Positions 7,463 to 49,721 are shown, counted from the stretch's first letter. The stretch: DNA of 54,977 bases from Desulfobacterales bacterium (GCA_023129535.1 JAGMBW010000071.1:1-54977), one strand, 5' to 3'. Numbers and translations: made by a program. Notes: generated by a model not told the origin, from the letters alone.

Positions 7463-7538
7463 GGGCGGGTAGCTCAGTTGGGAGAGCATCGGCCTTACAA
7501 GCCGGAGGTCACAGGTTCAAGCCCTGTTCCGCCTACCA
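7463..7538 (+). tRNA. tRNA-Val (anticodon TAC), CCA encoded
   Basis: GGGCGGG acceptor, D-arm GCTCAGTTGGGAGAGC, anticodon loop CTTACAA, T-arm ACAGGTTCAAGCCCTGT. Confidence 0.9.
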
Positions 7539-7602
7539 GAAATAGCTTATCACTATTAGTGGCTATTGGCTAATAGCTAAATGTAAAACCGAAGGTTTTT
7601 TT

Positions 7603-7681
7603 GGGGGCGTAGTTCAGTTTGGTTTAGAACGCCGGCCTGTCACGCCGGAGGTCGCGAGTTCGAGTCTCGTCGTCCCCGCCA
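7603..7681 (+). tRNA. tRNA-Asp (anticodon GTC), CCA encoded
   Basis: GGGGGCG acceptor, anticodon loop CTGTCAC, T-loop GTTCGAGTC. The integrase gene lies immediately 3', a classic integration target. Confidence 0.9.
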
Positions 7682-7690
7682 GGAATATCA

Positions 7691-7722
7691 AAGGGTTAGC
7701 TTTCATGGCTAACCCTTTTTCG
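7691..7722. terminator. Rho-independent style hairpin after tRNA-Asp, overlapping the integrase stop
   Basis: AAGGGTTAGC-TTTCATG-GCTAACCCTT followed by a T-run. Confidence 0.6.
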
Positions 7723-8806
7723 TTTCACTGCGGGAAAAACTGCGGGAATTTTTCGGGAGATTTTCGAGCTTGTCGAGTTCGAGAAGCTTCATCACGTCTC
7801 GTGTGTCTGTGTAATTCCCCTCCACATAAATCTCTGTCGTGGTCTGCCTTCTGTGCCGGAGGACTTGCTGTACTTTTTTCAGGCCGACCTTCTGTAGGTC
7901 GTTCAAATACTTCGCCACTGTGTGCCTGATGTCATGGTAACCGAAAGACTCAACATCCGCCAGTTTGCAAAGGGTCTTTAAAGTCTTACGCCTTTCACCG
8001 AAAGGTTTGCCATAGAATTTGCTCTTCGGGTTCATGTGGCAAAATACGTACGGGCTGGTGGGGTGGCGGTGCTTCCACTGCCACATCAGGAGCTGGTAGA
8101 GGTCGTCGTTCATCCAGAGTTTTTCGTACCTCATTTCCCCTGACTTATTCTTCTTTGTACCGAGCCTGGCCCACCTTTCTTCGAAATTGATATCATCGGC
8201 CCAGGTCCATCTCAGGATCTCACCCTTTCTCGCACCGGTATGCCAGTACGACCCCATTAATACCCTGTCATGGCCCTGGGCCACAAGCATGACCTTAAGG
8301 ATGTCTTGGATGGGAATCAATCTCCGTGCTTTCTTAGAGTGAGGTTTCTTTTTGATTGGAGCTGTGGGGTCATACATTATGCTGTACATGTCCTGGACCC
8401 AACCATAAAACGCCCTGAGATTCTTCCTGTCCTTGTTGGCTGCGTTGTTGCTCTGGGTCTCGGCACGATTGTTGATGAAATGCAGAATCGTGCGGGGTTC
8501 AATAGAAGTCACATCAACATCTCCGACATGTTCGTAAAACCGTTCCAAACAGTATCGCTTTTCGTCGAAGGTTTTCTTGTCATAGTTGATTTTGGAGTCA
8601 CCAAGATATTCCTGGGAAAGCCTCCAGAAAAATAGATCGTTACCTTGGGAAGAAGATTTCTGAGGTTTCTCGCTCAGACGGGCTTTTTCTTGCTTTATCC
8701 ACTGTCTTGCCTCGTCTTTGTATTGGAAGAACCCTCTGGCCATTATTCTCTCGCCCTTCAGCTCGAACTCGGCCCGCCAGCCCCATTTGCTCTTCCAGAT
8801 AGCCAT
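7709..8806 (-). CDS. Tyrosine-type site-specific integrase
   Basis: C-terminal catalytic motifs HTGARKGE, HDIRHTVAKYL and LRHRRQTTTEIY (the R-H-R-Y set). The ATG at 8806 is preceded by GAGGAGGG. N-terminus is MAIWKSKWGWRAEF. Confidence 0.9.
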   Translation of the reverse strand: MAIWKSKWGWRAEFELKGERIMARGFFQYKDEARQWIKQEKARLSEKPQKSSSQGNDLFFWRLSQEYLGDSKINYDKKTFDEKRYCLERFYEHVGDVDVTSIEPRTILHFINNRAETQSNNAANKDRKNLRAFYGWVQDMYSIMYDPTAPIKKKPHSKKARRLIPIQDILKVMLVAQGHDRVLMGSYWHTGARKGEILRWTWADDINFEERWARLGTKKNKSGEMRYEKLWMNDDLYQLLMWQWKHRHPTSPYVFCHMNPKSKFYGKPFGERRKTLKTLCKLADVESFGYHDIRHTVAKYLNDLQKVGLKKVQQVLRHRRQTTTEIYVEGNYTDTRDVMKLLELDKLENLPKNSRSFSRSETKKG

Positions 8807-9023
8807 ACAAAGCCCTCCTCGTAGTACGCCAGGATCCACCTACTTTTGCGGCAGGCAATATCTTGCGGCGCATTAACGCCCTGACTGTTTCAGGAGCAAG
8901 GGATAATTCGTTTGCCACCTGTTCCGGCGTAAGTATAGCGTTGTCTTGTTTCCCAGTCAATTTCAAAGGAAACCTACCAAATTGGGATAAACATTTTCTC
9001 TTTTCAGTGTACCAGTAGAGCAA
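8640..9023 (-). CDS. Excisionase-family (MerR/Xis-like) helix-turn-helix protein; start uncertain
   Basis: ILTPEQVANELSLAPETVRALMRRKILPAAKVGGSWR is a typical Xis HTH. The ATG called at 9023 lies inside a -24/-12 promoter-like element, so a downstream TTG (about 8966 or 8960) is more likely. The 3' tail overlaps int by about 166 nt in another frame. Confidence 0.55.
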   Translation of the reverse strand: MLYWYTEKRKCLSQFGRFPLKLTGKQDNAILTPEQVANELSLAPETVRALMRRKILPAAKVGGSWRTTRRALYGYLEEQMGLAGRVRAEGRENNGQRVLPIQRRGKTVDKARKSPSERETSEIFFPR

Positions 9024-9120: not shown

Positions 9121-9390
9121 GGTTCCGATAAAATCGTAACCAGTGAAATTTATTAACAATTAAGAGGTTCCGATAAAACAAGACGAGGTTCCGATAAAAT
9201 GCCGTGAAATTTCCAAGGGTTACACGCCATAAGGGAAGGCTAAGTTGTTGTAAGGTTCCGATAAACCTGTAAGCTATGGAATTTTCAGGAAATTGATAGG
9301 TTCCGATAAAATTGGGATAGGTTCCGATAAAATTGGGTGTAGTTTCAGTGGGTTACAATAAATAGAGGAATCATGAGGTTCCGATAAAAT
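9121..9390 (+). repeat. Left block of 7 direct copies of the 12-mer GGTTCCGATAAA (putative enhancer or operator array)
   Basis: Copies start at 9121, 9166, 9187, 9254, 9299, 9320 and 9377, with spacings of 45/21/67/45/21/57. The block is collinear with 25921-26190 at an offset of exactly 16800 nt for at least six copies. Confidence 0.85.
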
Positions 9391-10589
9391 GGATTAAGCA
9401 TCATATATGCTTTAATTGCCTGCGCTTAGCCATATCAGACCATCCACGTGGTTGTTCAAAGCTACGAGGGCGTTATAGCAGAGGTTGGCCGTGGTACCTG
9501 ATTTATACAAGGATGGATAAAGAGGATAGAACTGTCCTGGATGTTGGATGATTTCAGCCCCGATCCTCACACTACTTTTGATTAGGGCGACGTCGTGGGC
9601 GGTGGCGGGCCGCTTACGCGTGCTGGGAGATGCCAGGTTGTAAAAGGTATAGATTGGGTGGCGGAGCGGGGAGTGAGCTAGGCCGGAACGGCCAGCGACA
9701 AGCCCGTGCGGTGGGTGGGGCACGGGTTGCCAGGATACCAGCAAAGAGATGGCCGGCAAGAATCAAGCTTGAAACCGCAGCCTCGGTTTTTGTGTTTATA
9801 GGACGTTTTGGAACCCTCGTGCGAGTGATGAGTTCGCGGGTTCAGTGTGGCGACCTCCATCAGCGAGGATGTTTTGCAAATCCCTTGTCAGTGTTGATTT
9901 TGCGGCGTTGCGACAGTTTCTGTCCGTTAGGACGTTTTGTAACCCCTTTGCCAGTGTTGATTTTGCGGCGTTGTGGCGATCCTTGTCAGTCAGGAGGTAT
10001 TTTGAGTGTCGATTGTAGATTGCGAGGCTGGGTTTCTGGGCAGTGTATCGGGCTGAAGTGGAGCACCGGGTTTACCAGGTGATGCGGAGCGAAAGACCGC
10101 TACTCTGCCCTGGGGGAGGAGGATTTGGGGAGCCCCTGGGGGCAGAGGGGAAGCGTGGAGTGTCAGGGTGCAGCGAAGCAGTTTTTTCGCTGAGGTGCAC
10201 GCTGACTCTTCACGCGGGGTGGCGGGGGATATTCCCCCTGGAGGGGGCAGGGGGTGAATAGATAGGGCGTAGGGTGCGCCGGTGTTTTGTCTCCCCCCTG
10301 ACTTAAAAATTTAGTTGCGAAAGCAGGCGTGTGACGAATGCGGTGAGCGAAGCGAATGAGCCACCTTAGTCTGGCCGTAGCGCGGGTGAGCCAAAGGGAT
10401 GGCGCGCCCTGTGCCCGAAAAAAATCGCCCCAAACGACAAAAATGATGCCACCACTAAAGTGAGGGGCTTTTTTCGGAAAGCACAGGGCGTGACAGACCG
10501 ACGTGAACACGGAGAAGCGGAGGCCAGGTGAAAAAGAGGGGGGTTGTCAGGGGGGAGAAAAAATGCAGCACCCGGAGCCCCTTCCTTTT

Positions 10590-12355
10590 ACATGTTTTAA
10601 GTCCCCTATGAGGGGATTTAGGGGTGGGCAGCGGCGTAAGGTGCGTGAATTGGGGGCGTAGGTGAAATCGTTGTCTCGGTTTCTATGAGTCAACGATTTC
10701 ACCGAAGGCCCTTCCGCTTTGGGTGGGTAGCTTCAAAAACGGCGTCACGATGTGGGGATGGTGGTAAATACTGGCTGGGTTTGGGTTTATGGGTCAGAGA
10801 CAGTATTGATGACCATCCCCATATCGTGGCCACCACCAGGCTCTTTTAAGTCCCCTATGAGGGGATTTAGGGGTGGGTAGGGGTCAAAAAATTGCGTCAC
10901 CACGTGGGGAGGGCCGTAAATACTGCCTGGCTTTGGGGTCTCTGGATATCAGGCAGTCTTTATGGCAGGGTCCCCACGTAGTGACATCGACTTAAAAAAT
11001 GGTGTCACCCGGTAGCGCTGAGATGTGTGAGGCGGGCATAGCGTTGTTTCTCCGTTGCCTTATTGGCGGGAATAGCCTCGCTATTGCACTGCCGAGTGAC
11101 ATCCTCCAGTAAGGGCGGGTGGGCGGGTTAATCTCTTCGTTGCCACTCGACATGTTATGAAGTGCGGATGTGGTGTTCGATTTCGGAGGGGGTGCTGGGC
11201 GTCTTGAAAGTTGTGTGGGTTAGCCTGTGGTTTTTTGTGGCCACGTATCTGCTTAGCTTCGTGCCGATCCCGGTGGCTACGACGTGCGCCGCCTGGGATG
11301 GATGGGTTGAATTGGGGGCGTAGGTGAAATCGTTGTCTCGGTTTCTATGAGTCAACGATTTGACCGAAGGCCCTTCCGCTTTAGGTGAGTAAATTCAAAA
11401 CTGGCGCCACGACGTGGGGACGGCGATAAATGCTGTCGGGCTTTGGTTTTATGGGTAGGAGACAGCATTGATGGCCGTCCCTACGTCGTGACTACCACCA
11501 GGTGTTTTAAGTCCCCTATGAGGGGATTCAGGGGTGGAGAGCGGCGTAAGGCGCTTAAACTGGGGGCCGTAGGTGAAATCGTTGTCTCGGTGGCCATGAG
11601 ACAACGATTTCACCTACGGCCCTTCCGCTTTGGGTCGGGTAGATTGAAAAACGGCGTTACGACATGGGAACGGCGGTGAATACTGTCGGGCTTTGGTTTT
11701 ATGGGTAACAGGCAGTATTCATGGCCGTTCCCATGTAGGGACCACCGCTTGAATGTTTTAAGTCCCCTATGAGGGGATTCAGGGATGGGTAGCGGCGTAA
11801 GGCGCATGAATTGGGGGCCGTAGGTGAAATCGTTGTCTCCGTTTCTAGGAGACATCGTTTTCACCGAAGGCCCTTCCGGTTTGGGCGGTCTGGCGTGAGG
11901 TGGGGGTAAAGACGTTGTTTCGGGGCTGGAGGATCGGTTGAAGTGTTTGCCAGAGCAAACACTTTATCCGATGCGGAGTTTGAGGCTTCAAGAATCAAAA
12001 ATTGGGGGCCGTAGGTCAAGTGGTTGACTCAGGGAGACAACGACTTGACCGAAGGTCCTTCCGCTTATTGGGGGCCGTAGGTGAAATCGTTGTCTCCGTT
12101 TCTAGGAGACATCGTTTTCACCGAAGGCCCCTGGGGTTTGGGTAGGTAGATTCAAAAAAGGCGTCACGATGTGGGGACGGTGATAAATACTGTCGGGCTT
12201 TGGTTTTATGGGTTACAGGCAGTATTGATGGCCGTCCCCACATCGTGACTACCAGCAGGCTCTTTTAAGTCCCCTATGAGGGGATTTAGGGGTGGGTAGC
12301 GGCGTAAGGCGCGTGAGTTGGGGGCCGTAGGTGAAATCGTTGTCTCCGTTTCTAG
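10590..12355. repeat. Mosaic tandem array of three hairpin modules (A, B, C), left part
   Basis: Module A (TTTTAAGTCCCCTATGAGGGGATT) is at about 10595, 10844, 11505, 11756 and 12263. Module B (GTAGGTGAAATCGTTGTCTC...GAGACAACGATTTCACC) is at about 10650, 11311, 11560, 11811, 12001, 12068 and 12319. Module C (90-nt hairpin) is at about 10741, 10895, 11402, 11652 and 12159. Confidence 0.85.
11155..11235 (-). pseudogene. Relic of the 3' end of a PAPS-reductase-like gene (paralogue of 15495-16202)
   Basis: 11155-11230 is near-identical at nucleotide level to 15495-15570. It encodes ...THTTFKTPSTPSEIEHHIRTS* versus ...THKTFKTRSTVSEIEHRIRTS*, and no upstream body is present. Confidence 0.5.
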
Positions 12356-14677
12356 CCTTAGTTTCGCACTTTGAGTCCGGAAGAATTCACGACTTTTCTT
12401 GTTTATTCAATAAAATTAAGATGTTATAGAGAGAGGCTTTTCTTGGGTAATTTTTAACTATCTGATATTATTAATAAAACTTTTTGCAAAACAAATGTAG
12501 TACCTGTACAGCCTCCCCCGATATTTTATTTTTGTCTTGACAATGCCCCGTTTTTCGGTATCCTGAAAAAAATTTTGGAGAGCGAAAATGTTTTTCAGGG
12601 AAAATCGATCAAAAAATTCAAAACTACCTGTATCGCAATTAGTTGAAAATATTCGAACCGCCAGAGGCCCGAGGGTTCGTATCGTGGTATCTCTGGGTAC
12701 CAGGTTCAAAATTCCTAAGTCAGACCGGAGTGCGGTTGCACGTATTGTGAAAGAGCGGCTTTCCGGTCGGCTGTCATTATTTTCATACGATGCGCAGTTG
12801 GTTAGGTATGCGGACTATATCGTAAAAAAGATACAGACTGAGGGGAAATGGGATTCGGCGCGGCAGCGAGTGGCTGAATTCAAGGAGTCCGATCGGCAAA
12901 CAGCGGAGATTTTTGTTGAGGATGTAGAACATGGATATACCAGGGAATTGGGACCGATACTGATTGGCGATACATTTTGGAGCCGTTTGAATTTTCCTTC
13001 AATATTGCGTGAATATGGGTTTCGGGAGAGCGAGATAAAGACAGCAGAGATTTCGGTATTGAATCGTTTGATTTCCCAGGACAGTGAGAATGGGATTATT
13101 TCCTGGTTAGGGACGGTAGCCGTTGATGAATTGCTTGGTATTGATTTCATGCAATTTGGCCATGACCGATTTTATCGCATATCGGATAAGTTGTTGAAGC
13201 ATCAATCGTATATAGAAGAAGAGTTGTATCAACGGGAAAAAGACCTGTTCAGTCTTGAGGATTGCATATTCTTATATGATTTGACGAATACCTATTTCGA
13301 GGGTGTATGCGCAAGGAATCCGAAGGCGAAATATAGCAAGAATCAAAAGGAGAAGCGAAGTGACTGTCCGCAGGTAGTGGTAGCGCTTGTATTGGATGGT
13401 GATGGTTTTATTCGACGTCATCCTGTCTTCGAGGGAAAGATGTCGGATTCAAAGTCGTTGGGCCATATTGTGGGGGAATTGGCAAGTGAGTTTTCAGATA
13501 AAGCGATGCCCACGATCGTTTTTGACAGAGGGATGGTGACGGAAGAAAACATCGAACTTTTAAAGAGCTATGAGAATTTGAAGTACATTGTGATGTGCCG
13601 CAGTAACGAAGAAGAGCAGTTTATAGGCACATTCCAAAGGGAAGAATTCCATATTGTAGAAGGCAGAGACCCAAAAAAGAAAGTGGAAGTAATGATAAAA
13701 CCGGCAGCCGACATCGTTTATTTGTTGTGCAAAAGTGAAGGACGCAAAAACAAAGAGCAAGGGATGCGCAATAATCGTGAAAAAAAGCTGGAAAAGGAAC
13801 TGACAAATTTGCAGAATCAGATTCAAAAGGGGAGAGAAAATAATCCTGTCAAAATCGAACAAAGAATCGGTCGTATTAAAGAGCGGTTCGGCAAGGTGTC
13901 GCAATATTATGAGATCATGTATACCCATCGGGAATTTTCATATACACTTCCTGAAGATGTAAAAATTTCCAAACGAGTTTCAAATTCTCTTGCGAAGCTG
14001 AAAGAAAAAGCAAACGGCAATACAATCACCTTTCCGGCACTTGAAAAAAAACTGGCCGTTATGCAAGAGAAATATCCTTCTGATTTTGATAAAATCAAGA
14101 TGCACTTAATTGCACCAGCGTTGAGCTGGGAACCCATCGAGGAGATTCGTGAAAAAGAGGCGGGATTGGATGGAAATTACCTTTTGAAGACAAATCGGAC
14201 AGACTTAAATGCCGACGAAATATGGAAGTTGTATGTGATGCTAACTCGGATAGAAAACGCATTTCGGGATTTAAAGTCGTATCTTGGCTTACGCCCGAAC
14301 CCACATCACAGAGAAGACCGTGTCGATGGGCACATATTTATTTCAATCCTTGCGTATCATCTGCTTCATTCGATCGAATATATGTTACGAGTACAGGGTG
14401 TACATTCCCGCTGGGCAACAATAAAACGCGTGGTGAGCACACATGATTATTCGACCGTTCAGCTGCCGACAACCAGCGGTCCGGTAATCAATATCAGGAA
14501 GCCCAGTATGCCCGAAGGCATCCATATGGACATTTACGATAAGCTGGATGTAGACTACAAACATTTGCCGGTGAGACGCAACCTCGCCTGATTGAAAAAA
14601 ACTAAGGCGAGTCTGTAGTACCTGTATCTGTAAGGCATTGGCAATATTGTTCTTTTTATCAAAATGCGAAACCAAGG
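12356..14677 (+). mobile_element. Insertion sequence (IS1634/IS4-type, about 2.3 kb) inserted in the apex of a module-B hairpin
   Basis: Terminal inverted repeats are CCTTAGTTTCGCAC... and ...GCGAAACCAAGG. The flanks reconstitute the uninterrupted hairpin loop GTTTCTAGGAGAC. The target duplication is CTAG, or TA if the IS ends are taken as GCCTT...AAGGC. Confidence 0.8.
12588..14591 (+). CDS. DDE transposase, IS1634/IS4 family
   Basis: 667-aa ORF filling the IS. N-terminus MFFRENRSKNSKLPVSQLVENIRT... and a C-terminal LKSYLGLRPNPHHREDRVDGHIFISILAY block, typical of IS4/IS1634 DDE-K transposases. Confidence 0.8.
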   Translation: MFFRENRSKNSKLPVSQLVENIRTARGPRVRIVVSLGTRFKIPKSDRSAVARIVKERLSGRLSLFSYDAQLVRYADYIVKKIQTEGKWDSARQRVAEFKESDRQTAEIFVEDVEHGYTRELGPILIGDTFWSRLNFPSILREYGFRESEIKTAEISVLNRLISQDSENGIISWLGTVAVDELLGIDFMQFGHDRFYRISDKLLKHQSYIEEELYQREKDLFSLEDCIFLYDLTNTYFEGVCARNPKAKYSKNQKEKRSDCPQVVVALVLDGDGFIRRHPVFEGKMSDSKSLGHIVGELASEFSDKAMPTIVFDRGMVTEENIELLKSYENLKYIVMCRSNEEEQFIGTFQREEFHIVEGRDPKKKVEVMIKPAADIVYLLCKSEGRKNKEQGMRNNREKKLEKELTNLQNQIQKGRENNPVKIEQRIGRIKERFGKVSQYYEIMYTHREFSYTLPEDVKISKRVSNSLAKLKEKANGNTITFPALEKKLAVMQEKYPSDFDKIKMHLIAPALSWEPIEEIREKEAGLDGNYLLKTNRTDLNADEIWKLYVMLTRIENAFRDLKSYLGLRPNPHHREDRVDGHIFISILAYHLLHSIEYMLRVQGVHSRWATIKRVVSTHDYSTVQLPTTSGPVINIRKPSMPEGIHMDIYDKLDVDYKHLPVRRNLA

Positions 14678-14678
14678 C

Positions 14679-15210
14679 TAGGAGACATCGTTTTCACCGA
14701 AGGCCTCTGGGGTTTTGTGTGGCGAGGTATCTGCTTGGCGCCGTGGCGATCCCCGTGGCCAGGAGTCGGTCCGGCGGAGTCGGTCCGGCTGGGATGGATC
14801 TGGTTTTTTAGCGCGCTGTTCCTGGACAGTGCGCTTTGGGTGGGCAGCGGCGTAAGGCGCGTGAACTGGGGGCCGTAGGTGAAATCGTTGTCTCCGTTTC
14901 TAGGAGATATCGTTTTCACCGAAGGCCCTTCCTTTTTGGGTGGGTAGTTTCAAAAAAGGCGTCACGATGTGGGGATGGTGGTAAATACTGGCTGGGTTTG
15001 GGTTTATGGGTCAGAGACAGTATTGATGACCATCCCCATATCGTGGCCACCACCAGGCTCTTTTAAGTCCCCTATGAGGGGATTTAGGGGTGGGTAGGGG
15101 TCAAAAAAATTGCGTCACCGCGTGGGGAGGGCCATAAATACTGCCTGGCTTTGGGGTCTCTGGGTAACAGGCCGTATTTATGGCGGGGCCCCCATGTAGT
15201 GACATCCTCC
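14679..15210. repeat. Mosaic hairpin array, right part (continues after the IS)
   Basis: Contains the second half of the interrupted module B, module B at about 14866, module C at about 14955 and 15112, and module A at about 15061. Confidence 0.8.
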
Positions 15211-15494
15211 AGTAAGGGCGGGTGGGTGGGTTAATCTCTTCGTTGCGAGTTTCGTTAGGGATGTAAACTCTTTGCCGGAAATGGATAGGAGTTGCCAGGA
15301 TGCGTGGAGGCATAGGACGGGTATGTGTTTTGGGTGGATCGATGCTGTAAACTTTTGGAATTCAGAGCGTGAAATATTCATCAAAATATTCATGTGAGCT
15401 GTGGTGAAACACTTTGACAAGGACACCTGGTGAAAGGGTTTGGCAACGGCAGTGCCAGGCGCGCGGGTTAATGTCTTCGTTGCCACTGGAGATG

Positions 15495-16202
15495 TTATGA
15501 AGTGCGGATGCGGTGTTCGATTTCGGAGACGGTGCTCCGCGTCTTGAAAGTTTTGTGGGTTAGCCTGTCCATCTTTTTCATTTTTCGCCAGAGATGTGGG
15601 AAGAAGTAAAAAAGCGTTTCTAATGCAGAAAATTTTTGCAGTGGGCAACAAAAACAACCGGTGCGGGAAAATAGCTGATATAGGCCATTCCAGTCAAATC
15701 CCTGTTCATAACAGTATCTGAGGCTCTTATTTTTTGTTATTTTCCAGTCAATAAGGGGAAAAGCAACCGGTACAGGATAAACATTTTTTGCGTTGGCTCT
15801 GTGGCACTCATCGGAAGTAATGCCAGAATATAAATGGCAGGGTGGTAGAGAGCGGAGGTATTTGACCAACGGCTCCTTTTTGAGGACCTTGACACACCAA
15901 CGACATTGCCAGGCGGGCCAGCCATAGCCTTTCTGGCCCTTTCTTTTGCCTTTGGTCTTGACGTGTTCTGCAAACCAATACTGCCATGGCTTCTCACCCT
16001 TCAGGACGGTAATCTTTCTGCCGATGTAGGTTTGAACATGTTTGATGTGTCTGTAAACTTCAGGGAACTCCTGGCCTGTATCACAGAAAACAATATCGTC
16101 AATGCGGATGTTGTTCTCGATCATCATGAGCAGCATGCATGTGCTGTCTTTCCCGCCTGAGAACAATACTATGTGTTTAGGGTAAGCCTGGTTTTGTGTC
16201 AT
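15495..16202 (-). CDS. Phosphoadenosine phosphosulfate (PAPS) reductase family / PP-loop ATPase, phage-type
   Basis: IVLFSGGKDSTCML PP-loop motif. The ATG at 16202 begins MTQNQAYPKH. The upstream ORF extension is rejected. Confidence 0.75.
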   Translation of the reverse strand: MTQNQAYPKHIVLFSGGKDSTCMLLMMIENNIRIDDIVFCDTGQEFPEVYRHIKHVQTYIGRKITVLKGEKPWQYWFAEHVKTKGKRKGQKGYGWPAWQCRWCVKVLKKEPLVKYLRSLPPCHLYSGITSDECHRANAKNVYPVPVAFPLIDWKITKNKSLRYCYEQGFDWNGLYQLFSRTGCFCCPLQKFSALETLFYFFPHLWRKMKKMDRLTHKTFKTRSTVSEIEHRIRTS

Positions 16203-16471
16203 GGTTGAATAAATAGGATAGAAGGCGATAAATAGAACAAAAAAGGCACAAAAAAACATGCAGGATCGGCTCGAGATAGTGCCATATTATAAAAAAATAG
16301 CCAGCTAAGGGTAAAATATCATATTATACCCTGCACTTAAGGGTAAAATATATTGAGCATCTATATTATAACCCCCCTATAGTCTCCCCTTAGAGTCAAA
16401 GTACTGGACGTCTGGCCAGACTGCCGGGTCTGTTTTTGGACACGAAGTGAAGCTTGCGCTAAAGGCGGAAA

Positions 16472-17160: not shown

Positions 17161-17433
17161 TTATTGGCCACCCCTTTTTAGGGAACGCCCTGGTTTGAAA
17201 TGGGGGTATTTGCGTGCGGGGATGTTGATTGTCTTGCCGCTCTTGGGATTTCGTGCTTTTCGAGCCTTTCTATTTTTTACGTAGAATTTCCCAAAACCTC
17301 TGAGAACAATGGCATCCCCGTTGACCAGTAGATTGGTTACGTTGGACATAACACTATCCAGGGCCTTGGCTGCTAAGGGCCTCGTAATATCCAGGTCTTC
17401 AGCTATGTTCGCGACAAGTTCCGTTTTGGTCAT
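17161..17433 (-). CDS. HU/IHF family DNA-binding protein
   Basis: MTKTELVANIAEDL...GDAIVLRGFGKFYVKNRKARKARNPKSGKTINIPARKYPHFKPG. Confidence 0.9.
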   Translation of the reverse strand: MTKTELVANIAEDLDITRPLAAKALDSVMSNVTNLLVNGDAIVLRGFGKFYVKNRKARKARNPKSGKTINIPARKYPHFKPGRSLKRGGQ

Positions 17434-17450
17434 TTTGCCTCACACCCCCC

Positions 17451-17798
17451 TTACTTTTTTCTGCTAGTCTTTTTCTTTTTGGGCTTTGCCTTTGGTTTTA
17501 CCTTGGGCTTGGCCAACACGTTTTTGGCAACAGCCTCTTTCAGTGGCTGTCCCGGCTTGAAGCTTACCCTCACGCCTGGTGCGAAAGTTACTTTCTTGCC
17601 GGTCAGAGGGTTAATGCCTTTCCTCTCAGGTACGGGGTTCACCTTGAAGGATCCAAAGCCAGGAAGCTTCAATGCCCTTTTCCTTGCCAGGATCGCCTGG
17701 ATCACATCGAGCAGTATCGCCAGATATGCTCCAGCATTGACCTTGGTCACCTTAGCCTTTGTGGCGAATTTGGTTATGACTTCTTCTCTATCTGTCAT
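17451..17798 (-). CDS. HU-like DNA-binding protein with a lysine-rich C-terminal tail
   Basis: LPGFGSFKVNPVPERKGINPLTGKKVTFAPGVRVSFKPG followed by KPKVKPKAKPKKKKTSRKK. Confidence 0.8.
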   Translation of the reverse strand: MTDREEVITKFATKAKVTKVNAGAYLAILLDVIQAILARKRALKLPGFGSFKVNPVPERKGINPLTGKKVTFAPGVRVSFKPGQPLKEAVAKNVLAKPKVKPKAKPKKKKTSRKK

Positions 17799-25890: not shown

Positions 25891-26260
25891 AAGTTTATCG
25901 GAACCAATTTTGGGGGATCAGGTTCCGATAAAATTGTAAGTGCTGGAATTTATTGGAAATGAGTTGGTTCCGATAAAATTATACGTGGTTCCGATAAAAT
26001 GCTGTGAAGTTTCCAAAGGTTACAGACCATAAGGGAGGGCTAAGTTGCTATAAGGTTCCGATAAACCTGTAAGCTATGGAATTTTCAGGAAATTGATAGG
26101 TTCCGATAAAATGAGGATAGGTTCCGATAAAATTCCGTGCAGTTCCAATGGGTTACGAAACATAGAAAATCACGAGGTTCCGATAAAGTTCCGATAAAAG
26201 TGAAAGCTATGGAACATTAAGAGAATTTGGCGGGTTCCGATAAGGTTGCGATAAGACGTA
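25891..26260 (+). repeat. Right block of the GGTTCCGATAAA 12-mer: 9 direct copies, 1 degenerate, 1 inverted (putative enhancer/UAS)
   Basis: Direct copies start at 25921, 25966, 25987, 26054, 26099, 26120, 26176, 26188 and 26233. There is a degenerate copy at 26244 and an inverted copy at 25895-25905. The block overlaps the 3' end of the activator gene. Confidence 0.85.
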
Positions 26261-31372: not shown

Positions 31373-31714
31373 TCATTCTATTGCCAGGACAACAGCCAGT
31401 GCTTCGGTGATATCCTGCATAGCTGCTTCAGACAGTTTTCCTGTTCGCTGAACAAATCTTGCCTGCGATAACGAACGTACCTGAAAGGCGTCTGCCGCCG
31501 AAGGCTTATCCAAACCATTTTCCGCATCGGGGTCGAGCCGAACCATCCACGGTGCCACAGCATACCTATCTTTCCACTTGGTTATCGGCACGATAACCTT
31601 CAACGGCAAAATCCCAACGGCATCATCATTCACAATGACTGCGGGGCGTGTCTTCTTGATCTCAGCACCCATGGTTGGGTCCAAATTGATCCGCCAGACT
31701 TCGCCCCTATGCAT
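31373..31714 (-). CDS. mazF: MazF/PemK family toxin endoribonuclease
   Basis: MHRGEVWRINLDPTMGAEIKKTRPAVIVNDD...LKVIVPIT. Confidence 0.88.
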   Translation of the reverse strand: MHRGEVWRINLDPTMGAEIKKTRPAVIVNDDAVGILPLKVIVPITKWKDRYAVAPWMVRLDPDAENGLDKPSAADAFQVRSLSQARFVQRTGKLSEAAMQDITEALAVVLAIE

Positions 31715-31946
31715 GAAAAGCCTCACCGTCAAGAACTGTAAAGCTGGTCAGTTCATCATCTTTTTCATAATCTGGAAGTAAGGCCTCAGCAGCAGCAGCC
31801 AATTTTTGTTTTCTTTCTAGCTGAGTTAGTGGCTGTTCAATTTTTTGAAAATCTTCTTGAAGTTGATGTATAGCAGCTTCAATTATTTCCAGCCGCTCTC
31901 TGGCCGAAAGGTTCTTGAGCTCTTCCAAAATCGCTGTCTGTGCCAT
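31707..31946 (-). CDS. Antitoxin (addiction-module component) partner of MazF
   Basis: The ATG at 31946 is preceded by AAAGGAGG. It overlaps the mazF start by 8 nt. The product is a small acidic helical protein. Confidence 0.7.
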   Translation of the reverse strand: MAQTAILEELKNLSARERLEIIEAAIHQLQEDFQKIEQPLTQLERKQKLAAAAEALLPDYEKDDELTSFTVLDGEAFHA

Positions 31947-37475: not shown

Positions 37476-39793
37476 GATCGTTTATCCTTATCGCCAAATA
37501 CAATTTCACCCATCTTGTTCAAATCAGCTACCCCCCGGACCTCATGGGGAAACAAGGGAACTTTTGTTACAATACGGGCGGGAAACCTTGAATGAATCTT
37601 TTTCATATATCCCTGCTGCTCCATCCTTTTGCAGGAGCAAAAATCACAATCCGTTTGGGGAATGACCATGTTGATTGCGATGTGATTACAGGGGACCCTG
37701 GCGCTCTCCAAGGCGTCTACAAGTCGTTCCAGCTCAAGAAAGCCCATGGCCTCAGGGATAGTCACCGCGACAAAAGCCGTTCTTTTGACGTCCACGAATG
37801 CCTCCTGAATCCTCCTCACATTCCTGGACATGGCCAGTGCCTTTTCAGCGGCCTTGGCCAACCTGACCACTCCCCTGTATTTCAACAACAACCTGAAAAA
37901 TGCCTTCAACCATTCCCTGACCATATCAGGAAGCTCCAAAAAGCGAAGAAGGTGGCCGGTGGGAGAGGTATCCAGGATAAAGATATCAAATTTTCCTTCC
38001 TTCTTCAGATCCATGATCATATCCAGGGCCATGATCTCGTCGAGACCCGGCGGCGCAAGGGTAAACAGTTCCGTCATGACCTCACGGTCGAATTTTATAT
38101 CAACGCCGCTGGTCAAAAATCTGTCGAAGAGTGCTTCTATGTCTTTCTTGTACCCCTCCTTGAAATCCTCAAACAACTTATCCGCATCTATCTCCAAAGC
38201 GAAAAGATTGGTATTGACAGGTCCAAGGTCCGAGGTCCAATGTCCAAGGTCCGAGGAGTTGTCCAAAGTCCGAGGTCCAATGTCCAATGTCTTTCCATGG
38301 TTACCTGCTGACTTTGGACTTTGGACTTTGGACTTTGGACCCATCACTTCCGACTTTGGACTTTGGACAGTTCTTGGACTTTGGACTTTGGACGTTGGAC
38401 TATAATCTATTGGCGTCACCTTATCCCCAATCGTCAACTTAAACGAATCGGACAGGGAATGGGCTGGGTCCGTGGAGAAAACAAGGACCTTTTTTCCTGG
38501 ATTACATCGCGCCAAATGAAGTGAGGCGGCTGAAGCAAGGGAGGTCTTGCCCACTCCGCCCTTGCCGCCAAAGAGGACAAATTCGAGATCGGGATCGAGG
38601 GTCAGATACGCCTGGGGCTCTTCATCAGTCTGAGCTACCTTCGGCAGTCTGTAAGGCTTGCCCTTTCCTAAGAGATAGTCCGCCAGGCCTTTCAGTTCTT
38701 CGACCCCTCGGATCTCCCTGGGAAACAACGGGACTTTTATCAAATTATATAGTGAAAAAACATCTTCGATTTCGGACAAAGGCTCCCTTTGATCCTCTTT
38801 TTTTGCTGTGCAAAACGCACAGCCTTCGCTATCCCCGACCCTGTTGACGACAATCTCCTTCACCGGGATGTGGTTCTTGTCCAGACTGCTCAGGAGTCTC
38901 CTGGTCTCATATATACTCATTGGCTCCGGAATAGTCACCGGAACGAACCGGGTTATCTTCTCGTTCGAGAGGAGCTTTTTAACCCTATCAATATCCGAGG
39001 AGAGGTTGTCGAGGAAAATATCACACTCATCTTTGACATACCTTTTTCCGGTAAAATGGGCAGCCATGTAACGGTGCTTGTGCTGCATCAGATCCATAAC
39101 CTCAACCCATTTCAGCATCTGTTCGGGAAGGGCAAGCATCCGCATGGTGTGCCCGGCCGGGGCAGTATCCACTATCAGGATATCATAACTTCCCTCCTTC
39201 AAAATATTGGCTATCTCGATGATGGCCATGACCTCATCCATGCCCGGAAGCGAAAGGTCGAAAAATTCGGCAATGTCCTGCTGGTCAAAATAGGTTCCCC
39301 TCTTCGCAAGTTTCTTCATTACGGGATCATTCTTCTCTCTGAACTCCTCTAACAACCTGTTTGCATCTAACTCACGCGCAAACAAGTTTGCGCGGTCCGA
39401 TGTCCGTTGTCCAATGTCCAATGTCTGATGTTGTCCGATGTCAGACGTCCCGCCATGATCCCTGCCCGAGCTTGGACTTTGGACCTTGGACCTTGGACTT
39501 TGGACTTTGGACCTTGGACGCATCACTTCTGACTTTGGACTTTGGACTTTGGACTTTGGACTATAATCTATTGGTGTGACTTTATCCCCTATCTCTATCC
39601 CAAAGCTATCGCCCAGGGAATGGGCCGGATCGGTCGATATGACCAACACCTTCTTGTCGCTGGGATAAGACCGGGCCAACTGCACAGCCGCAGCCGCAGC
39701 CATGGTAGTCTTGCCCACGCCGCCCTTTCCACCGAACAGGATCAAGCGCAGGTCTCTGTTCTGAAAATATTCAGGTACCCTGCGGGAAATCAT
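37472..39793 (-). CDS. Tandem (two-domain) ArsA/Get3-family ATPase with repeat-encoded insertions in both halves
   Basis: Two GGKGGVGKT(T/S) P-loops, two STDPAHSL motifs and two DT(A/S)P(A/T)GHT(M/L)R switch motifs. Insertions are at 39389-39568 and about 38215-38400. Confidence 0.9.
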   Translation of the reverse strand: MISRRVPEYFQNRDLRLILFGGKGGVGKTTMAAAAAVQLARSYPSDKKVLVISTDPAHSLGDSFGIEIGDKVTPIDYSPKSKVQSPKSEVMRPRSKVQSPRSKVQSPSSGRDHGGTSDIGQHQTLDIGQRTSDRANLFARELDANRLLEEFREKNDPVMKKLAKRGTYFDQQDIAEFFDLSLPGMDEVMAIIEIANILKEGSYDILIVDTAPAGHTMRMLALPEQMLKWVEVMDLMQHKHRYMAAHFTGKRYVKDECDIFLDNLSSDIDRVKKLLSNEKITRFVPVTIPEPMSIYETRRLLSSLDKNHIPVKEIVVNRVGDSEGCAFCTAKKEDQREPLSEIEDVFSLYNLIKVPLFPREIRGVEELKGLADYLLGKGKPYRLPKVAQTDEEPQAYLTLDPDLEFVLFGGKGGVGKTSLASAASLHLARCNPGKKVLVFSTDPAHSLSDSFKLTIGDKVTPIDYSPTSKVQSPRTVQSPKSEVMGPKSKVQSPKSAGNHGKTLDIGPRTLDNSSDLGHWTSDLGPVNTNLFALEIDADKLFEDFKEGYKKDIEALFDRFLTSGVDIKFDREVMTELFTLAPPGLDEIMALDMIMDLKKEGKFDIFILDTSPTGHLLRFLELPDMVREWLKAFFRLLLKYRGVVRLAKAAEKALAMSRNVRRIQEAFVDVKRTAFVAVTIPEAMGFLELERLVDALESARVPCNHIAINMVIPQTDCDFCSCKRMEQQGYMKKIHSRFPARIVTKVPLFPHEVRGVADLNKMGEIVFGDKDKRS
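38215..38400. repeat. Palindromic heptamer array (GTCCAAN)n...(TTGGACN)n translated in frame within ArsA half 2
   Basis: Read directly from the sequence. It encodes ...SKVQSPRTVQSPKSEVMGPKSKVQSPKS...TLDIGPRTLD...HWTSDLGP. Confidence 0.85.
39389..39568. repeat. Palindromic heptamer array translated in frame within ArsA half 1
   Basis: Encodes DYSPKSKVQSPKSEVMRPRSKVQSPRSKVQSPSS...TSDIGQHQTLDIGQRTSD, at the same structural position (after GDKVTPID) as in half 2. Confidence 0.85.
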
Positions 39794-43813: not shown

Positions 43814-44584
43814 CTAATCCGGAACATATTGTACTTTATTCCTACAATGTCTACATTCCATAACTCTTCCATCAGTTTTAAGTACTATATCTCCATCACA
43901 ATGTGGACATTTCTCTTTGCTTGTCGGCCCTGCTGGGGGCTTTGTGGACTTGCTTTTATGTGGCTTAAGAGGCGCTGGAGTGTACGGCTTAATTGGCACA
44001 GGGGTGTATGGCTTCAGTGGTGCTGGACTGTACGGCTTAAGCGGTGCTGGAGTGTAGGGCTTCGGTGGTACTGGTTTGTACGCTTTGAGCGGTGCTGGAG
44101 TGTAGTCCTTTAATGGTGCAGGCTTGTAGGCTTTAAGGGGCACGGGAGTGTAGTCCTTTAACGGTACAGGTTTGTAAGGCTTAAGAGACGCCGGAGTGTA
44201 GTCCTTCAATGGTGCCGGTTTATACGGCTTAAGCGGTGCTCGGGTGTAGGGCTTGAGTGGAACCGGAGTATAGTCCTTTAATGGCACTGGCGTGTACGGC
44301 TTAAGAGCTGGCGTGTACGGCTTCGATGGTTCTGGTTCGTATGCCTTGAGCGGCGCTGGACTATAGTCCCTCAATGGCGCTGGTTTGTACGCCTTAGTAG
44401 GGACAGGGGTGTACGGCTTGAGTGGAACTGGCTTGTATGGCTTAAGCGGCACAGGAGTGTAGGCATTCAGTCGCTTAGGCTTATAGGAAGGCCTGGATTT
44501 GGATCTGGGATGGTCTTTACCCCGCTTTATGAATTTTTCCCTCCACCTTTTATCCTTAATTATCTCTTGAGCCTTTTCTTGCAT
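43814..44584 (-). CDS. Proline-rich octapeptide-repeat protein (about 20+ x PLKxYxPx) with a C-terminal zinc ribbon
   Basis: The repeats span about 43940-44470. The C-terminus has CPHCDG...CRHC. Confidence 0.7.
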   Translation of the reverse strand: MQEKAQEIIKDKRWREKFIKRGKDHPRSKSRPSYKPKRLNAYTPVPLKPYKPVPLKPYTPVPTKAYKPAPLRDYSPAPLKAYEPEPSKPYTPALKPYTPVPLKDYTPVPLKPYTRAPLKPYKPAPLKDYTPASLKPYKPVPLKDYTPVPLKAYKPAPLKDYTPAPLKAYKPVPPKPYTPAPLKPYSPAPLKPYTPVPIKPYTPAPLKPHKSKSTKPPAGPTSKEKCPHCDGDIVLKTDGRVMECRHCRNKVQYVPD

Positions 44585-44662
44585 TGTTGTACCTCCTTTC
44601 CCACCCAGCTAAACTGATTTTTCATGGAAACGAAAAACATCATTGTTATCAGTGGTCAGTTA

Positions 44663-45622
44663 TCAGTGGGTATTGTTCAAAGTCCGAGGTCCAAGGTCCG
44701 GAGTCTTGCCATGCTCGCTTACTGACTTTGGACATTGGACTTTGGACAATCTTATCTCCAGCAAATTGTTTTTCAGATGCATCTGATGGTTATCAGAGTT
44801 TACCTCAGCGGGCAGACGGATGATTTCCTTCCAGGTGGAATCAGTCTTCTCGGATCTGACCGTAACCTGGTCTCTGTTGACCTCAAGCCTTAAATCGGAC
44901 GCCTCGGTCCCTCTCACTTCCATGATGACCTGTATATGGGAAGCTTCATCGAATATATCCAATACCCGGTCTTTACTCTGTATCCGTTTCTCCTGCTGCC
45001 CCATCAGCCACCAGCTAAATAAAACCTTTTCTCCGGTTTCCGGGTCCACCCTTGATCTTTCAAAAGAGAGAATCGGACATCCAACCGTCTTTTCTGCGAT
45101 GGGATTGATCGTCTCCTTGATGTTCAGAAGGATATGCATATGGTTTGGCGCATCGATCAGTTCGGCCAACTCGTCGATCCTGGCGTGGCGATTCTCCCAC
45201 AGGTACCACAAGATATCCCGGCTTTCAGGATCTAATTGAGCAGCAATCTTTTCAATAGTCTCCTGATCGACCTTTAAAAGTGAGGTTTGATAGATTATTT
45301 TTTTCCGCCAGTCTCCCAAATCGTTTGCGACGAACCAGATCTTGCCTTCCCTTGAGCCGTTTCTGGCTTTATAGACAATACATAAGGATTCCCTTTTTCT
45401 GAGAACATAGTGAAGCCTTTCTATTGCCAAATCCTTAATTTGGTCGAGTGGGATCTCAAATCTAATTGTTGGCCTCTGATACATAATAAACCTCTGGCTG
45501 GTCAGAAGACACTGGGCTACTTTCCAGCCAGAGCGAAAATTATGCTTATACGACCCCTGGCCCTGTAGTATTAGCTGTTCGCCTGTTTGAAGTCTCGGAG
45601 TGTTGGCTTTTTGGGAAATCAT
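44663..45622 (-). CDS. Multidomain protein: N-terminal PH/GRAM-like domain, central domain, C-terminal Hsp20-like domain
   Basis: WKVAQCLLTSQRFIMYQRPTIRFEIPLDQIKDL resembles a PH-like domain. VLDIFDEASHIQVIMEVRGTEASDLRLEVNRDQVTV...NNLLEIRL resembles an alpha-crystallin domain. The last 25 or so aa are encoded by the heptamer array. Confidence 0.7.
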   Translation of the reverse strand: MISQKANTPRLQTGEQLILQGQGSYKHNFRSGWKVAQCLLTSQRFIMYQRPTIRFEIPLDQIKDLAIERLHYVLRKRESLCIVYKARNGSREGKIWFVANDLGDWRKKIIYQTSLLKVDQETIEKIAAQLDPESRDILWYLWENRHARIDELAELIDAPNHMHILLNIKETINPIAEKTVGCPILSFERSRVDPETGEKVLFSWWLMGQQEKRIQSKDRVLDIFDEASHIQVIMEVRGTEASDLRLEVNRDQVTVRSEKTDSTWKEIIRLPAEVNSDNHQMHLKNNLLEIRLSKVQCPKSVSEHGKTPDLGPRTLNNTH

Positions 45623-45626
45623 TATT

Positions 45627-45658
45627 CGTTGCTGGTTGCTGGTTGCTGGTTGCTGGTT
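45627..45658. repeat. (GTTGCTG)n heptamer array, left flank of four-helix-bundle gene A
   Basis: Near-complementary to (AACGAGC)n at 46075-46105. Confidence 0.85.
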
Positions 45659-45667
45659 AAATGCGAA

Positions 45668-46039
45668 TTATTTCCATTCGGTTTCGACATATTGAATAAA
45701 TTTGTTGATCTTTCTTCCAAGTTTGTCATTTTTTTCTTTTAGTTCTTTATAAAGTTGAACACTGATATATCCTGAGTCATGGATAAAATCCAAATGAACT
45801 TGAGTTTCATCGCATGATGCTTGCGCATAAACCAAAAACTTCACAAAATCATTCTTGTATCTTCTTCTTCCGTACCCCTCCACAATACAGGAACAAACCC
45901 CTTTTGAGGACCTCCTTATCTGACTACCTTCCTCATAAAGTTCGTATTTGGGTAGTTTCAAAGACATATGATGTATCTTCATTGCCAATTCATACGCCAA
46001 TTGATAGATCTCCAAATCACGATAGCTTTTCGGCCTCAA
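45668..46039 (-). CDS. Four-helix-bundle protein (23S rRNA intervening-sequence protein / Avd-like family)
   Basis: YRDLEIYQLAYELAMKIHHMSLKLPKYELYEEGSQIRRSSKGVCSCIVEGYGRRRYKNDFVKFLVYAQASCDET. Confidence 0.85.
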   Translation of the reverse strand: MRPKSYRDLEIYQLAYELAMKIHHMSLKLPKYELYEEGSQIRRSSKGVCSCIVEGYGRRRYKNDFVKFLVYAQASCDETQVHLDFIHDSGYISVQLYKELKEKNDKLGRKINKFIQYVETEWK

Positions 46040-46074
46040 AGGTTCCCTCCTTTTTTCATTTCTCGCTATTTTTT

Positions 46075-46105
46075 AACGAGTAACGAGCAACGAGCAACGA
46101 GCAAC
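46075..46105. repeat. (AACGAGC)n heptamer array, right flank of four-helix-bundle gene A
   Basis: The reverse complement GTTGCTC differs by 1 nt per unit from the left-flank unit GTTGCTG. Confidence 0.85.
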
Positions 46106-46123
46106 ACAACCCACAACCTCATT

Positions 46124-47872: not shown

Positions 47873-47889
47873 AAGTCTCCTTCGGAGAC

Positions 47890-48000
47890 GTCCGTTGTCC
47901 GTTGTTAGTTGTCCGTTGTCGATTCTCCGGTTGCAGGTTGCAGGTTGCAGGTTGCAGGTTGCAGGTTGCAGGTTGCAAGTTGCAGGTTGCAAGTTGCAGG
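47890..48000. repeat. (GTCCGTT)n and (GGTTGCA)n heptamer arrays, left flank of four-helix-bundle gene B
   Basis: About 10 units of GGTTGCA/AGTTGCA, complementary to the units at 48403-48461. Confidence 0.85.
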
Positions 48001-48020
48001 CTGAAGGTTACGGGTTGCGA

Positions 48021-48386
48021 CTACTTCCATTCTTTTGCGACATACTCGATGAATTTGTTAATCTTCTTGCCCAGTTTGTAATACTCATTCAGGAGAAACG
48101 ATAGTTCTGTTTCATCAACTTCATGGGTATCTTTGATGAAATTCAGATGCAGAGTTGTTTCATCGCACGATGCGTGAGCATAGATCAGGAACTTAATAAA
48201 GTCGGCTTTATATCTTCTCCGCCCATAGCCTTCTACAATTGAGGACGTAATTCCTTTCGAGGAGCGTCTTATTTGGCTTCCCTCTTCATAAAGTTCATAT
48301 TTTGGCAAGGTTAATGACATCCTATGTATTCTGACTGCCAGATCATAAGAGAGAGTGTAGATTTCCAAATCCCTGTAGCTCTTCAC
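48021..48386 (-). CDS. Four-helix-bundle protein (23S IVS protein / Avd-like), copy B
   Basis: A GTG start at 48386 follows AAGGAG. KSYRDLEIYTLSYDLAVRIHRMSLTLPKYELYEEGSQIRRSSKG closely matches copy A. Confidence 0.8.
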   Translation of the reverse strand: MKSYRDLEIYTLSYDLAVRIHRMSLTLPKYELYEEGSQIRRSSKGITSSIVEGYGRRRYKADFIKFLIYAHASCDETTLHLNFIKDTHEVDETELSFLLNEYYKLGKKINKFIEYVAKEWK

Positions 48387-48402
48387 TATATCAACTCCTT
48401 GA

Positions 48403-48502
48403 CCTGCAACTCGCAACTCGCAACCCGCAACCTGCAACCTGCAACTTGCAACTTGCAACTTACCCACTACCCACTGACCACTGACAACGGACCACTGATC
48501 AC
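48403..48502. repeat. (CTGCAAC/TCGCAAC/TTGCAAC)n then (CCACTGA)-type arrays, right flank of gene B
   Basis: The reverse complement of the units equals the GTTGCAG units on the left flank. Confidence 0.85.
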
Positions 48503-49579: not shown

Positions 49580-49584
49580 AAGAT

Positions 49585-49720: not shown

Positions 49721-49721
49721 A

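Follow-up and report, generated by a model that had tools for sequence, protein, structure and literature searches.

A modular hairpin array on a Desulfobacterales genomic island, a candidate long structured non-coding RNA

What is being maintained in a stretch of DNA that repeats the same few hairpins many times over, and in what kind of molecule? The question is raised by a mosaic of hairpin modules at positions 10595-15210 of JAGMBW010000071.1:1-54977 (GCA_023129535.1, Desulfobacterales bacterium). This stretch of 54,977 nucleotides, referred to as the window, is scaffold_141 of an ENA sediment metagenome assembly. We describe the anatomy of the array, its island context and conserved position, its base pairing and strand asymmetry, and its narrow distribution. 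The reading that we favor, at a probability of about 0.42, is that the array constitutes a lineage-restricted long modular non-coding RNA, the module number of which changes by unequal recombination. A preliminary description of the same DNA had likened the array to bacterial interspersed mosaic elements (BIMEs) made of repetitive extragenic palindromic (REP) sequences, and had offered structured RNAs carried by a mobile element as a second option. Each of these proposals, together with an element acting as DNA, a stack of terminators and duplicated DNA of little or no function, is weighed below where the evidence bears on it.

The array was delineated by sequence reading, repeat finding, self-BLAST and matches to covariance models. 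It comprises six copies of module A, nine of module B (one of them split) and seven of the C type, all in a single orientation, and its basic unit of ~250 nt is A-B-C, with variations in the order. About half of the 10595-15210 span is an insertion sequence (IS), net of which the array measures ~2.29 kb. The three-module mosaic of ~2.3 kb recognized in the preliminary description is thus real, and repeat finding and self-BLAST bear out the A-B-C order with its variations. The features of the array are the following.

10595-12355, + strand: array block 1, which reads A B C A C' D (D7 D6 D9) B C A B C A B E B' B C A and ends with the 5' half of a B
14682-15210, + strand: array block 2, which holds the 3' half of the split B, a D9-like segment and B C A C'
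10596-10626, + strand: module A as the extended hairpin UUUAAGUCCCCU-AUG-AGGGGAUUUAGG, with a consensus fold of a 12-bp stem closed by CCACC/GGUGG
10848-10867, 11509-11528, 11760-11779, 12267-12286 and 15065-15084, + strand: the other module A cores
11560-11629, + strand: module B, a 25-bp hairpin that is perfectly paired in this copy; matches to model R2 score 68-94 bits
10649-10718, 11311-11380, 11811-11880, 12002-12065 (variant), 12068-12137 and 14866-14935, + strand: further module B copies
12318-12355 plus 14682-14712, + strand: the split module B, its halves on either side of the IS
10741-10832, + strand: module C, a ~30-bp hairpin with a conserved 24-nt G/U-rich loop; matches to model R1 score 80-111 bits
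11403-11494, 11653-11744, 12160-12251 and 14958-15049, + strand: the other canonical module C copies (five in total)
10893-10987 and 15111-15205, + strand: the two divergent C' copies
10997-11105, + strand: module D, a branched hairpin on a GTCAC/GTGAC base, read from the sequence and present once in the window
11925-11975, + strand: module E, a single-copy hairpin (GGATCGGTTGAAGTGTTTGC / GCAAACACTTTATCCGATGC), read from the sequence

The core of module A (AAGTCCCCTATGAGGGGATT) recurs in its six copies with zero mismatches, always on the + strand, compared to an expectation of 0 in shuffled sequences. The sole variant seen is in a related island (L008), where a U-A pair has become U·G. Module B is represented by eight intact copies and the one interrupted by the IS. 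Its 5' arm is nearly invariant and holds CCGTAGG in most copies (GTTGG and CGAAGG are variants), its 3' arm is variable, and a 3x3 internal loop, either GUA/GAA or GAA/GAA, is found in 14 of the 18 copies known from the window and its relatives. The hairpins measure 60-95 nt. A basal stem, GTCAC...GTGAC, is common to C, C' and D, the last of which is also found at the distal array end in L008 and in a second related island, L009. Short A-rich and G-rich linkers join the modules, and these unpaired linkers are conserved in sequence, as is the loop of C. No open reading frame (ORF) passes through the units, every frame of every unit being interrupted by stops. The + strand is the G-rich strand of the array (GC skew of ~+0.25), and on it a run of A5-7 precedes every C, C' and D hairpin, which corresponds to a hairpin followed by T5-7 on the - strand. 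Four of the six canonical G-quadruplex motifs of the 55-kb window are located in the array, all on the + strand (11113-11127, 15216-15230, 10861-10883 and 15078-15100); the motif GGGCGGGTGGGCGGG, with 1-nt loops, is kept at the distal end of all related arrays.

The pairing of the modules was counted in alignments of all copies from four related islands, which comprise 14 distinct C copies and 18 B copies. The 30-pair helix of C is paired in 91% of its cells, versus 30-53% when the partners are slid, and seven of its pairs have changed on both sides, versus 3.0±1.1 in shuffles, none of 500 of which reaches seven. Module B is paired in 87% of its cells and has four pairs changed on both sides, a count reached by 29 of 500 shuffles. 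The covariation proposed earlier is therefore clear for C and weak for B, and the compensatory examples quoted for it are all present in the sequence. A second pattern is one of strand. The stems hold 38 G·T cells versus 7 A·C, and when each pair position of C, B and the leader (described below) is counted once, G·U variants outnumber A·C variants by 34 to 5 (p = 2e-6). Modules B and C alone, the helices of which were defined from the DNA palindrome, give 17 versus 4 positions. The unpaired columns exhibit no such mutation bias (C>T/A>G, 12 versus 16). In each of the 32 B and C copies the + strand gives the more stable fold, and for one whole unit the values are -140 kcal/mol on the + strand versus -117 on the - strand. 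The asymmetry of G·U over A·C and the unbiased unpaired columns favor selection on a + strand single-stranded fold; they identify the strand and do not tell RNA from single-stranded DNA (ssDNA). The earlier proposal that selection acts on structure rather than on sequence thus gains strand-specific support. The comparison is simple and reusable: a G·U versus A·C excess, checked against unpaired columns, separates selection on a single-stranded fold from the upkeep of palindromes by replication errors.

Such upkeep is at the heart of the reading that would deny the array any substantial function. The modules would be tandem and segmental duplicates of hairpin DNA, perhaps derived from the operon terminator C', and their symmetry would be owed to template switching and not to selection. 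Hairpin changes that look compensatory are documented products of template switching in replication (PMC8794818), and B has uncompensated mismatches; both points speak for this reading. Template switching yields perfect Watson-Crick copies, however, and so does not account for the one-sided excess of G·U (34 versus 5 for A·C) next to unbiased unpaired columns. The conservation of the unpaired loop and linkers likewise argues against mere duplication. We regard this reading as unlikely, and return to it where the variation among islands bears on it.

The array does not stand alone. Directly upstream of the first A is a second conserved segment.

10040-10594, + strand: conserved, highly structured non-coding leader, the most conserved part of which is 10262-10590

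The leader is 88-95% identical in the four islands, and no other non-coding DNA of the locus is as well conserved as the 350-550 nt that precede the first A. As RNA it has a minimum free energy of -252 kcal/mol on the + strand versus -210 on the - strand. The consensus fold of 10255-10600 contains 99 pairs, with 99% of cells paired and four double changes; the 11 one-sided changes are all compatible with G·U on the + strand. Three of them turn a C opposite G into U within a 13-bp long-range helix, and the long-range pairing of the leader spans ~240 nt. Between the iterons of the island (see below) and the leader, at 9790-10000, there are three ~65-nt direct repeats (AGGACGTTTTGCAACCC..TTGTCAGTGTTGATTTTGCGGCG), which are kept in L005, L008 and L009. 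They may represent an operator or promoter region.

Taken as one unit, leader and array would form a non-coding region of ~2.8 kb without the IS, from ~10040 to ~15210, of which the array is the variable 3' part. In the arrangement that we envisage, the region is read from the G-rich + strand as a single-stranded molecule, most likely RNA. This molecule would have two parts, a heavily base-paired and conserved leader and then a string of autonomous hairpins (A, B, C/C'/D and E), the number and order of which would shift between islands by unequal recombination or segmental duplication between the repeats. A single precursor would be made, considering that no internal promoters were found: a sigma-70 scan revealed no promoter-like sites inside the modules. 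Multivalent binding is suggested by three invariant elements that recur in many copies, namely the hairpin of A, the 5' arm of B and the loop of C; the molecule could be a scaffold or sponge with many sites for a protein or RNA partner that recognizes these elements. Going one step further, leader and array might define an undescribed class of large (>1.5 kb) mobile-island non-coding RNA, with interchangeable modules, that offers some factor of the host or the island a multivalent scaffold or decoy; we hold this extension tentatively and consider it doubtful. If the + strand RNA is real, few modular structured non-coding RNAs known from bacterial mobile elements would match it in length, and sediment Desulfobacterota would join the sources of large "ornate" RNAs.

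Several observations weigh against a + strand RNA. No convincing promoter was found on the + strand upstream of the leader, whether by the sigma-70 scan or by reading for sigma-54-like motifs, and no convincing + strand RNA terminator was found. The A-runs ahead of the C-type hairpins read on the - strand as terminator-like hairpins with a T-run. In B there are recurrent mismatches (U·U and G·G), and the covariation of this module is not significant. The pairing counts as a whole are a small sample and are not independent events, as they derive from four related islands in which the copies within an array are paralogues. The structure of the leader was predicted on the same four sequences in which its changes were counted and is therefore supportive only. 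G·T pairs are tolerated in ssDNA hairpins too, so that the asymmetry reveals the strand and not the type of molecule. Modules are absent from the islands with 70-81% identical integrases. Finally, a search with a spurious ORF of the array against 1.84 billion representative proteins recovered only three array-derived ORFs, of which two correspond to the arrays of L005 and L009 and one is similar to that of L008.

The island in which the array is found bears on the choice between RNA and DNA. The host is an uncultured Desulfobacterales, the Lon protease of the window being 87-88% identical to those of Desulfobacterales metagenome-assembled genomes (MAGs). A tRNA-Val and a tRNA-Asp are located at 7463-7681 (tRNA-Asp at 7603-7681), followed by an integrase gene. 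The match to a strain with 98% identical DNA runs up to the 3' end of tRNA-Asp and ends exactly there, which indicates that all DNA to the right of the tRNA is an inserted island. The array is part of this island, as the second option of the preliminary description would have it. Two genes delimit the locus.

7709-8839, - strand: tyrosine integrase (int) of the array-bearing island, PF00589, adjoining tRNA-Asp
15495-16259, - strand: PAPS-reductase ORF, 254 aa

Between the PAPS-reductase gene and the integrase is a non-coding gap, in which the array is located. The island genes, int included, are all on the - strand, and encode an HTH_17 protein, a DUF5131 protein, RepO-like and DnaC-like proteins, a C11 peptidase, an NlpC/P60 protein, two HU proteins (17161-17798), a PLD-family nuclease and the PAPS-reductase-family protein. 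Near both ends of the island there is a 283-bp repeat, 86% identical between the two sites, within which the iteron GGTTCCGATAAA forms two clusters, at 9121-9388 (seven copies) and 25894-26244 (~10), almost all of them direct. In an excised circle these clusters would flank int and attP and could be integrase arm sites or origin/partition sites.

In the most serious alternative to an RNA, the array is a DNA-level element, a palindromic array akin to BIMEs or BOX elements that acts as a + strand cruciform or ssDNA, RNA being irrelevant or secondary. Possible roles are in the replication or transfer of the island, or as binding sites for its HU-like proteins. The strand asymmetry fits this reading, given the tolerance of ssDNA hairpins for G·T, and so does the lack of a promoter for an RNA. 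The two HU-family genes are located only 2 kb away, and in islands with related integrases ssb, ardC and dprA are found next to int, as is typical of elements that pass through ssDNA. We count here as well the reported binding of Escherichia coli HU to RNA of the REP325 cluster (PMC4550694), although the chromosome-organizing role of that RNA has been disputed in a 2026 preprint (10.64898/2026.03.23.713779). In contrast, the replication module of the island is of the RepO/DnaC type, without a relaxase or a rolling-circle Rep. Conserved loops and linkers, and leader pairing that reaches over ~240 nt, would be expected of a folded RNA more than of extruded DNA, and as cis-acting DNA sites the iteron clusters, separate from the array, are the likelier choice. 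We therefore consider the DNA-level reading improbable, if less so than the other alternatives. We favor RNA over ssDNA as the molecule, at odds that we put somewhat short of even, because the leader pairs over long range, loops and linkers are conserved, and the island lacks replication or transfer genes of the ssDNA type. The earlier suggestion of structured RNAs carried by a mobile element fits this island context. Were the element to act as DNA, it would show that a BIME-like mosaic can emerge and be retained on one island alone, with no REP-associated tyrosine transposase (RAYT) to go with it.

The gene order raises a further possibility, one that concerns the opposite strand. The modules could form a stack of - strand terminators or insulators that ends or stabilizes the transcripts of the PAPS-reductase operon and shields int from read-through. 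The island genes, int among them, are on the - strand, the array is situated between the end of the operon and int, and C, C' and D each present a hairpin followed by T5-7 on that strand. The C' that comes directly after the PAPS-reductase gene is followed on the - strand by a run of T7, an observation that would suit the reading of duplicated DNA derived from a terminator. None of the 32 B and C copies is as stable on the - strand as on the + strand, however, and G·U pairs become A·C mismatches there. The T-run begins 3-4 nt past the stem, the ~30-bp stems and 24-nt loops are unlike those of typical intrinsic terminators, the A modules and most B copies have no T-run, and a scan called no - strand terminator in the modules. 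Thus, the terminator stack is in our estimate quite improbable.

The three related islands (L005+L006, L008 and L009), identified by scans and protein look-ups, share with the window the order of leader, array, distal flank and PAPS-reductase gene. The module counts differ among them.

Window: 6 A, 9 B, 7 C-type
L008: 3 A, 3 B, 3 C-type
L009: 3 A, 8 B, 3 C-type
L005+L006: 3 A, 2 B, 2 C-type

The total ranges from 8 to 22 modules among close relatives, which makes this variation a natural experiment. Every array starts with leader-A-B and finishes with C-A-C'-(D)-D7-D6, and the middle is variable. The free variation in module number and order is what one would expect of DNA with little or no function. 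Against that reading, the modules are better conserved between islands than the neighboring genes, with 92-94% identity for the best-matching copies (a value somewhat inflated, as the best of several copies is taken) versus 78-82%. The manner in which the arrays change can be read from the repeats of the window itself.

11095-11282, + strand: internal copy of the distal flank of the array (D7, D6, D9), from repeat families and self-BLAST
15198-15568, + strand: distal flank of the array (D7, a second D7-like segment, D6), which overlaps the last ~24 codons of the PAPS-reductase ORF

The two blocks of the array resemble each other by self-BLAST (10622-10988 versus 14838-15206, 94%), and the copies of the distal flank match at 98% (11095-11143 versus 15198-15246), 91.5% (11123-11228 versus 15463-15568) and 83% (11225-11277 versus 14707-14759). 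The presence of a distal-flank copy inside the array of the window indicates that the arrays change by segmental duplication or unequal recombination, and not by transposition of single modules. No target duplications flank the individual modules in the array. Segment D6 is a duplicate of DNA around the 3' end of the PAPS-reductase gene. The close homologues of this protein are 213-235 aa in length and align to only 84-93% of the window ORF; the distal flank has apparently remodeled the 3' end of the gene (15495-15568, the overlap with D6). Homologues with ~50% identity were considered as further carriers of the array and set aside, as they are found in ordinary phage early regions without it. 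In an island with a 78% identical integrase (L014 1-11056), with HU and PLD-nuclease genes like those of the window, dprA, ssb and an ArdC-like gene are located next to int instead of a hairpin array. The int-proximal slot thus appears to hold exchangeable cargo.

Within the array of the window, one B module is interrupted by a mobile element of its own.

12356-14677, + strand: a complete IS that does not count as array; its ORF at 12588-14591 encodes a 667-aa DDE transposase (PF01609, E = 4e-10)

The preliminary description placed the array within ~4 kb of non-coding DNA, with no convincing ORF spanning it; this was wrong, as the IS had been missed. The element is flanked by a 4-bp target duplication, CTAG (12352-12355 and 14678-14681), and has imperfect terminal repeats (CCTTAGTTTCGC / GCGAAACCAAGG). 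It is inserted in the loop of the B hairpin, and joining of the two halves restores a normal B with CTAG duplicated. The 90%-identity cluster of its transposase comprises 47 proteins, the majority encoded on contigs of ~2.3 kb. In metagenomes, seven further copies of the IS are located at YTAR-type sites (CTAG, TTAG, CTAA) in unrelated DNA, from which it follows that insertion depends on a tetranucleotide target and not on recognition of a hairpin. We considered whether insertion into hairpin loops might be a sign of extruded DNA, and rejected this for the IS of the window on account of its YTAG-type target in unrelated DNA. A second and different IS has entered a B loop in L005/L006, with ends CCTGAATCTTC... 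and ...GAAGACTTCGG and a target duplication of TATGA.

L005 1-145, - strand, and L006 1-120, + strand: ends of the second IS, within the B hairpin loop

That two different IS elements are tolerated inside B modules is a point in favor of little or no function.

How far does the family extend? Covariance models for C (R1) and B (R2), built from the module copies, match nothing outside the arrays, whether in the rest of the 55-kb window, in the host contig L013 of a near-identical strain or in the islands with 73-81% identical integrases; the dispersed genomic copies sought on the suggestion of the preliminary description are therefore not seen there. The 20-mer of module A is absent from 185,579 GTDB representative genomes except for one Christensenellales MAG, and in JGI metagenomes it is found only in a related island. 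One metagenome match (L007), of 21 nt and without extension beyond, was taken as chance. A 401-nt stretch of the array (A-B-C-A-C', 10595-10995) has no blastn match in 50,697 phage and 72,556 plasmid records, and the A and B patterns have 0 matches in the IMG/VR viral contigs. In Rfam 15, the families of which include GOLLD, ROOL, OLE, STAXI and int-alpA, only three tRNAs of the window reach the gathering threshold. At E<=10, only generic long-hairpin (miRNA precursor) models appear, far below threshold, so that the Rfam scan proposed earlier points to no family beyond tRNAs and such generic models. Searches of genomes, phages, plasmids and proteins thus indicate a family private to a small island lineage. 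This very narrow distribution would also suit DNA without a function.

The Christensenellales MAG carries an intergenic repeat element of ~230 nt in two copies, which contain the match at L001 7329-7358 (- strand) and L002 1175-1203 (+ strand). The element is identical over 29 nt to the extended module A (AAGTCCCCTATGAGGGGATTTAGGGGTGG), with the same hairpin predicted, and shares nothing else with the array. Such an identity across phyla is unlikely to have arisen by chance. Peptide strings of spurious ORFs from these repeats have no match in the literature. Elsewhere in the window, beyond the island, 38219-39562 and 43962-52360 hold many heptanucleotide tandem repeats (TTGGACT x13, GGTTGCA x13, GCAACGA x11), and a repeat with a periodicity of 24/48/96 nt is located at 43962-44461.

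Which known system does the array resemble? REP sequences are 20-40 nt in length, occur in >100 dispersed copies, alternate in orientation in BIMEs and are accompanied by RAYT genes (PMC2817692, PMC3333891). Like BIME/REP clusters (for example REP325) and REPINs, the array is a non-coding mosaic of several kinds of palindromic units, with short linkers and a copy number that varies among strains. The clusters in E. coli are transcribed and are frequent sites of IS insertion, as are the B loops here, which recall the insertion of IS1397 in BIMEs; GTAG, present in the 5' arm of most B copies but variable in others, is a point for the REP reading. The proposal that the array is a BIME/REP mosaic spread by a RAYT transposase is nonetheless contradicted by what we found. 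Neither the rest of the 55-kb window nor L013 contains a copy, and among the 185,579 representative genomes the A 20-mer occurs in one unrelated MAG only. All modules have one orientation, where REPs in BIMEs alternate (PMC2817692), the hairpins of 60-95 nt exceed the 20-40 nt of REPs, and the IS of the window targets YTAG and not hairpins. The array is confined to one locus of one island family, has a structured leader in front of it, and is without a RAYT. A decayed RAYT had been placed at 32.1-32.7 kb, but the ORFs of 31.7-32.9 kb have no match to PF01797 (the Y1/RAYT transposase) or to any transposase, even at E<=10. Adjoining it at 31373-31732 is a MazF/PemK-like toxin gene (PF02452, E = 8e-25), along with small ORFs without a family match. 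The private distribution, the uniform orientation and the absence of a Y1 signal exclude the REP/BIME-RAYT reading as far as we can judge, and we give it only the slightest chance.

The BOX elements of Streptococcus pneumoniae (boxA-boxB(n)-boxC) are a second parallel, in architecture: three module types in order, with a variable middle and stable predicted folds, in non-coding DNA (PMC3049150). BOX modules are ~50 nt in length and the elements are MITE-like (miniature inverted-repeat transposable element) at >100 dispersed loci, whereas the array has up to 22 modules at one locus. Interspersed repeats of the BOX/MITE type were rejected for the array on the grounds of its single locus, the absence of target duplications at the modules and its growth by segmental duplication. 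The array is also not a CRISPR array, as the ~230-nt intervals between A hairpins are homologous to one another (B + C) and no CRISPR-DR model of Rfam matches. An array of integron attC sites was likewise rejected: on reading of the sequence the RYYYAAC / GTTRRRY core sites are absent from the module ends, and the integrase is located beside tRNA-Asp, with insertion at the 3' end of the tRNA.

Among RNAs, the CsrB/RsmZ sponges and the ToxI arrays are similar in their repeated structured units, invariant recognition elements and variable unit number. Units of ~20-45 nt are the rule there, combined with GGA loops or with a toxin gene downstream, whereas the units of the array are of ~250 nt, with no conserved GGA loop motif and no toxin gene downstream on the + strand. 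The repeats of type III toxin-antitoxin systems (34-45 nt plus a toxin gene) were set aside for the same unit size of ~250 nt and because only the PAPS-reductase gene, in antisense, lies downstream on the + strand. GOLLD and ROOL are large "ornate" non-coding RNAs of phages and prophages, long and highly structured, each with one defined architecture; STAXI, in which structural units are repeated, is associated with integrases. The array is like all three in being long, structured and carried on a mobile element, and differs in being a variable concatenation of hairpins without an Rfam match to them at E<=10. Although it departs from them in dispersal, alternating orientation, unit size and association with RAYT, the array is in its architecture most like the BIMEs/REP clusters and BOX.

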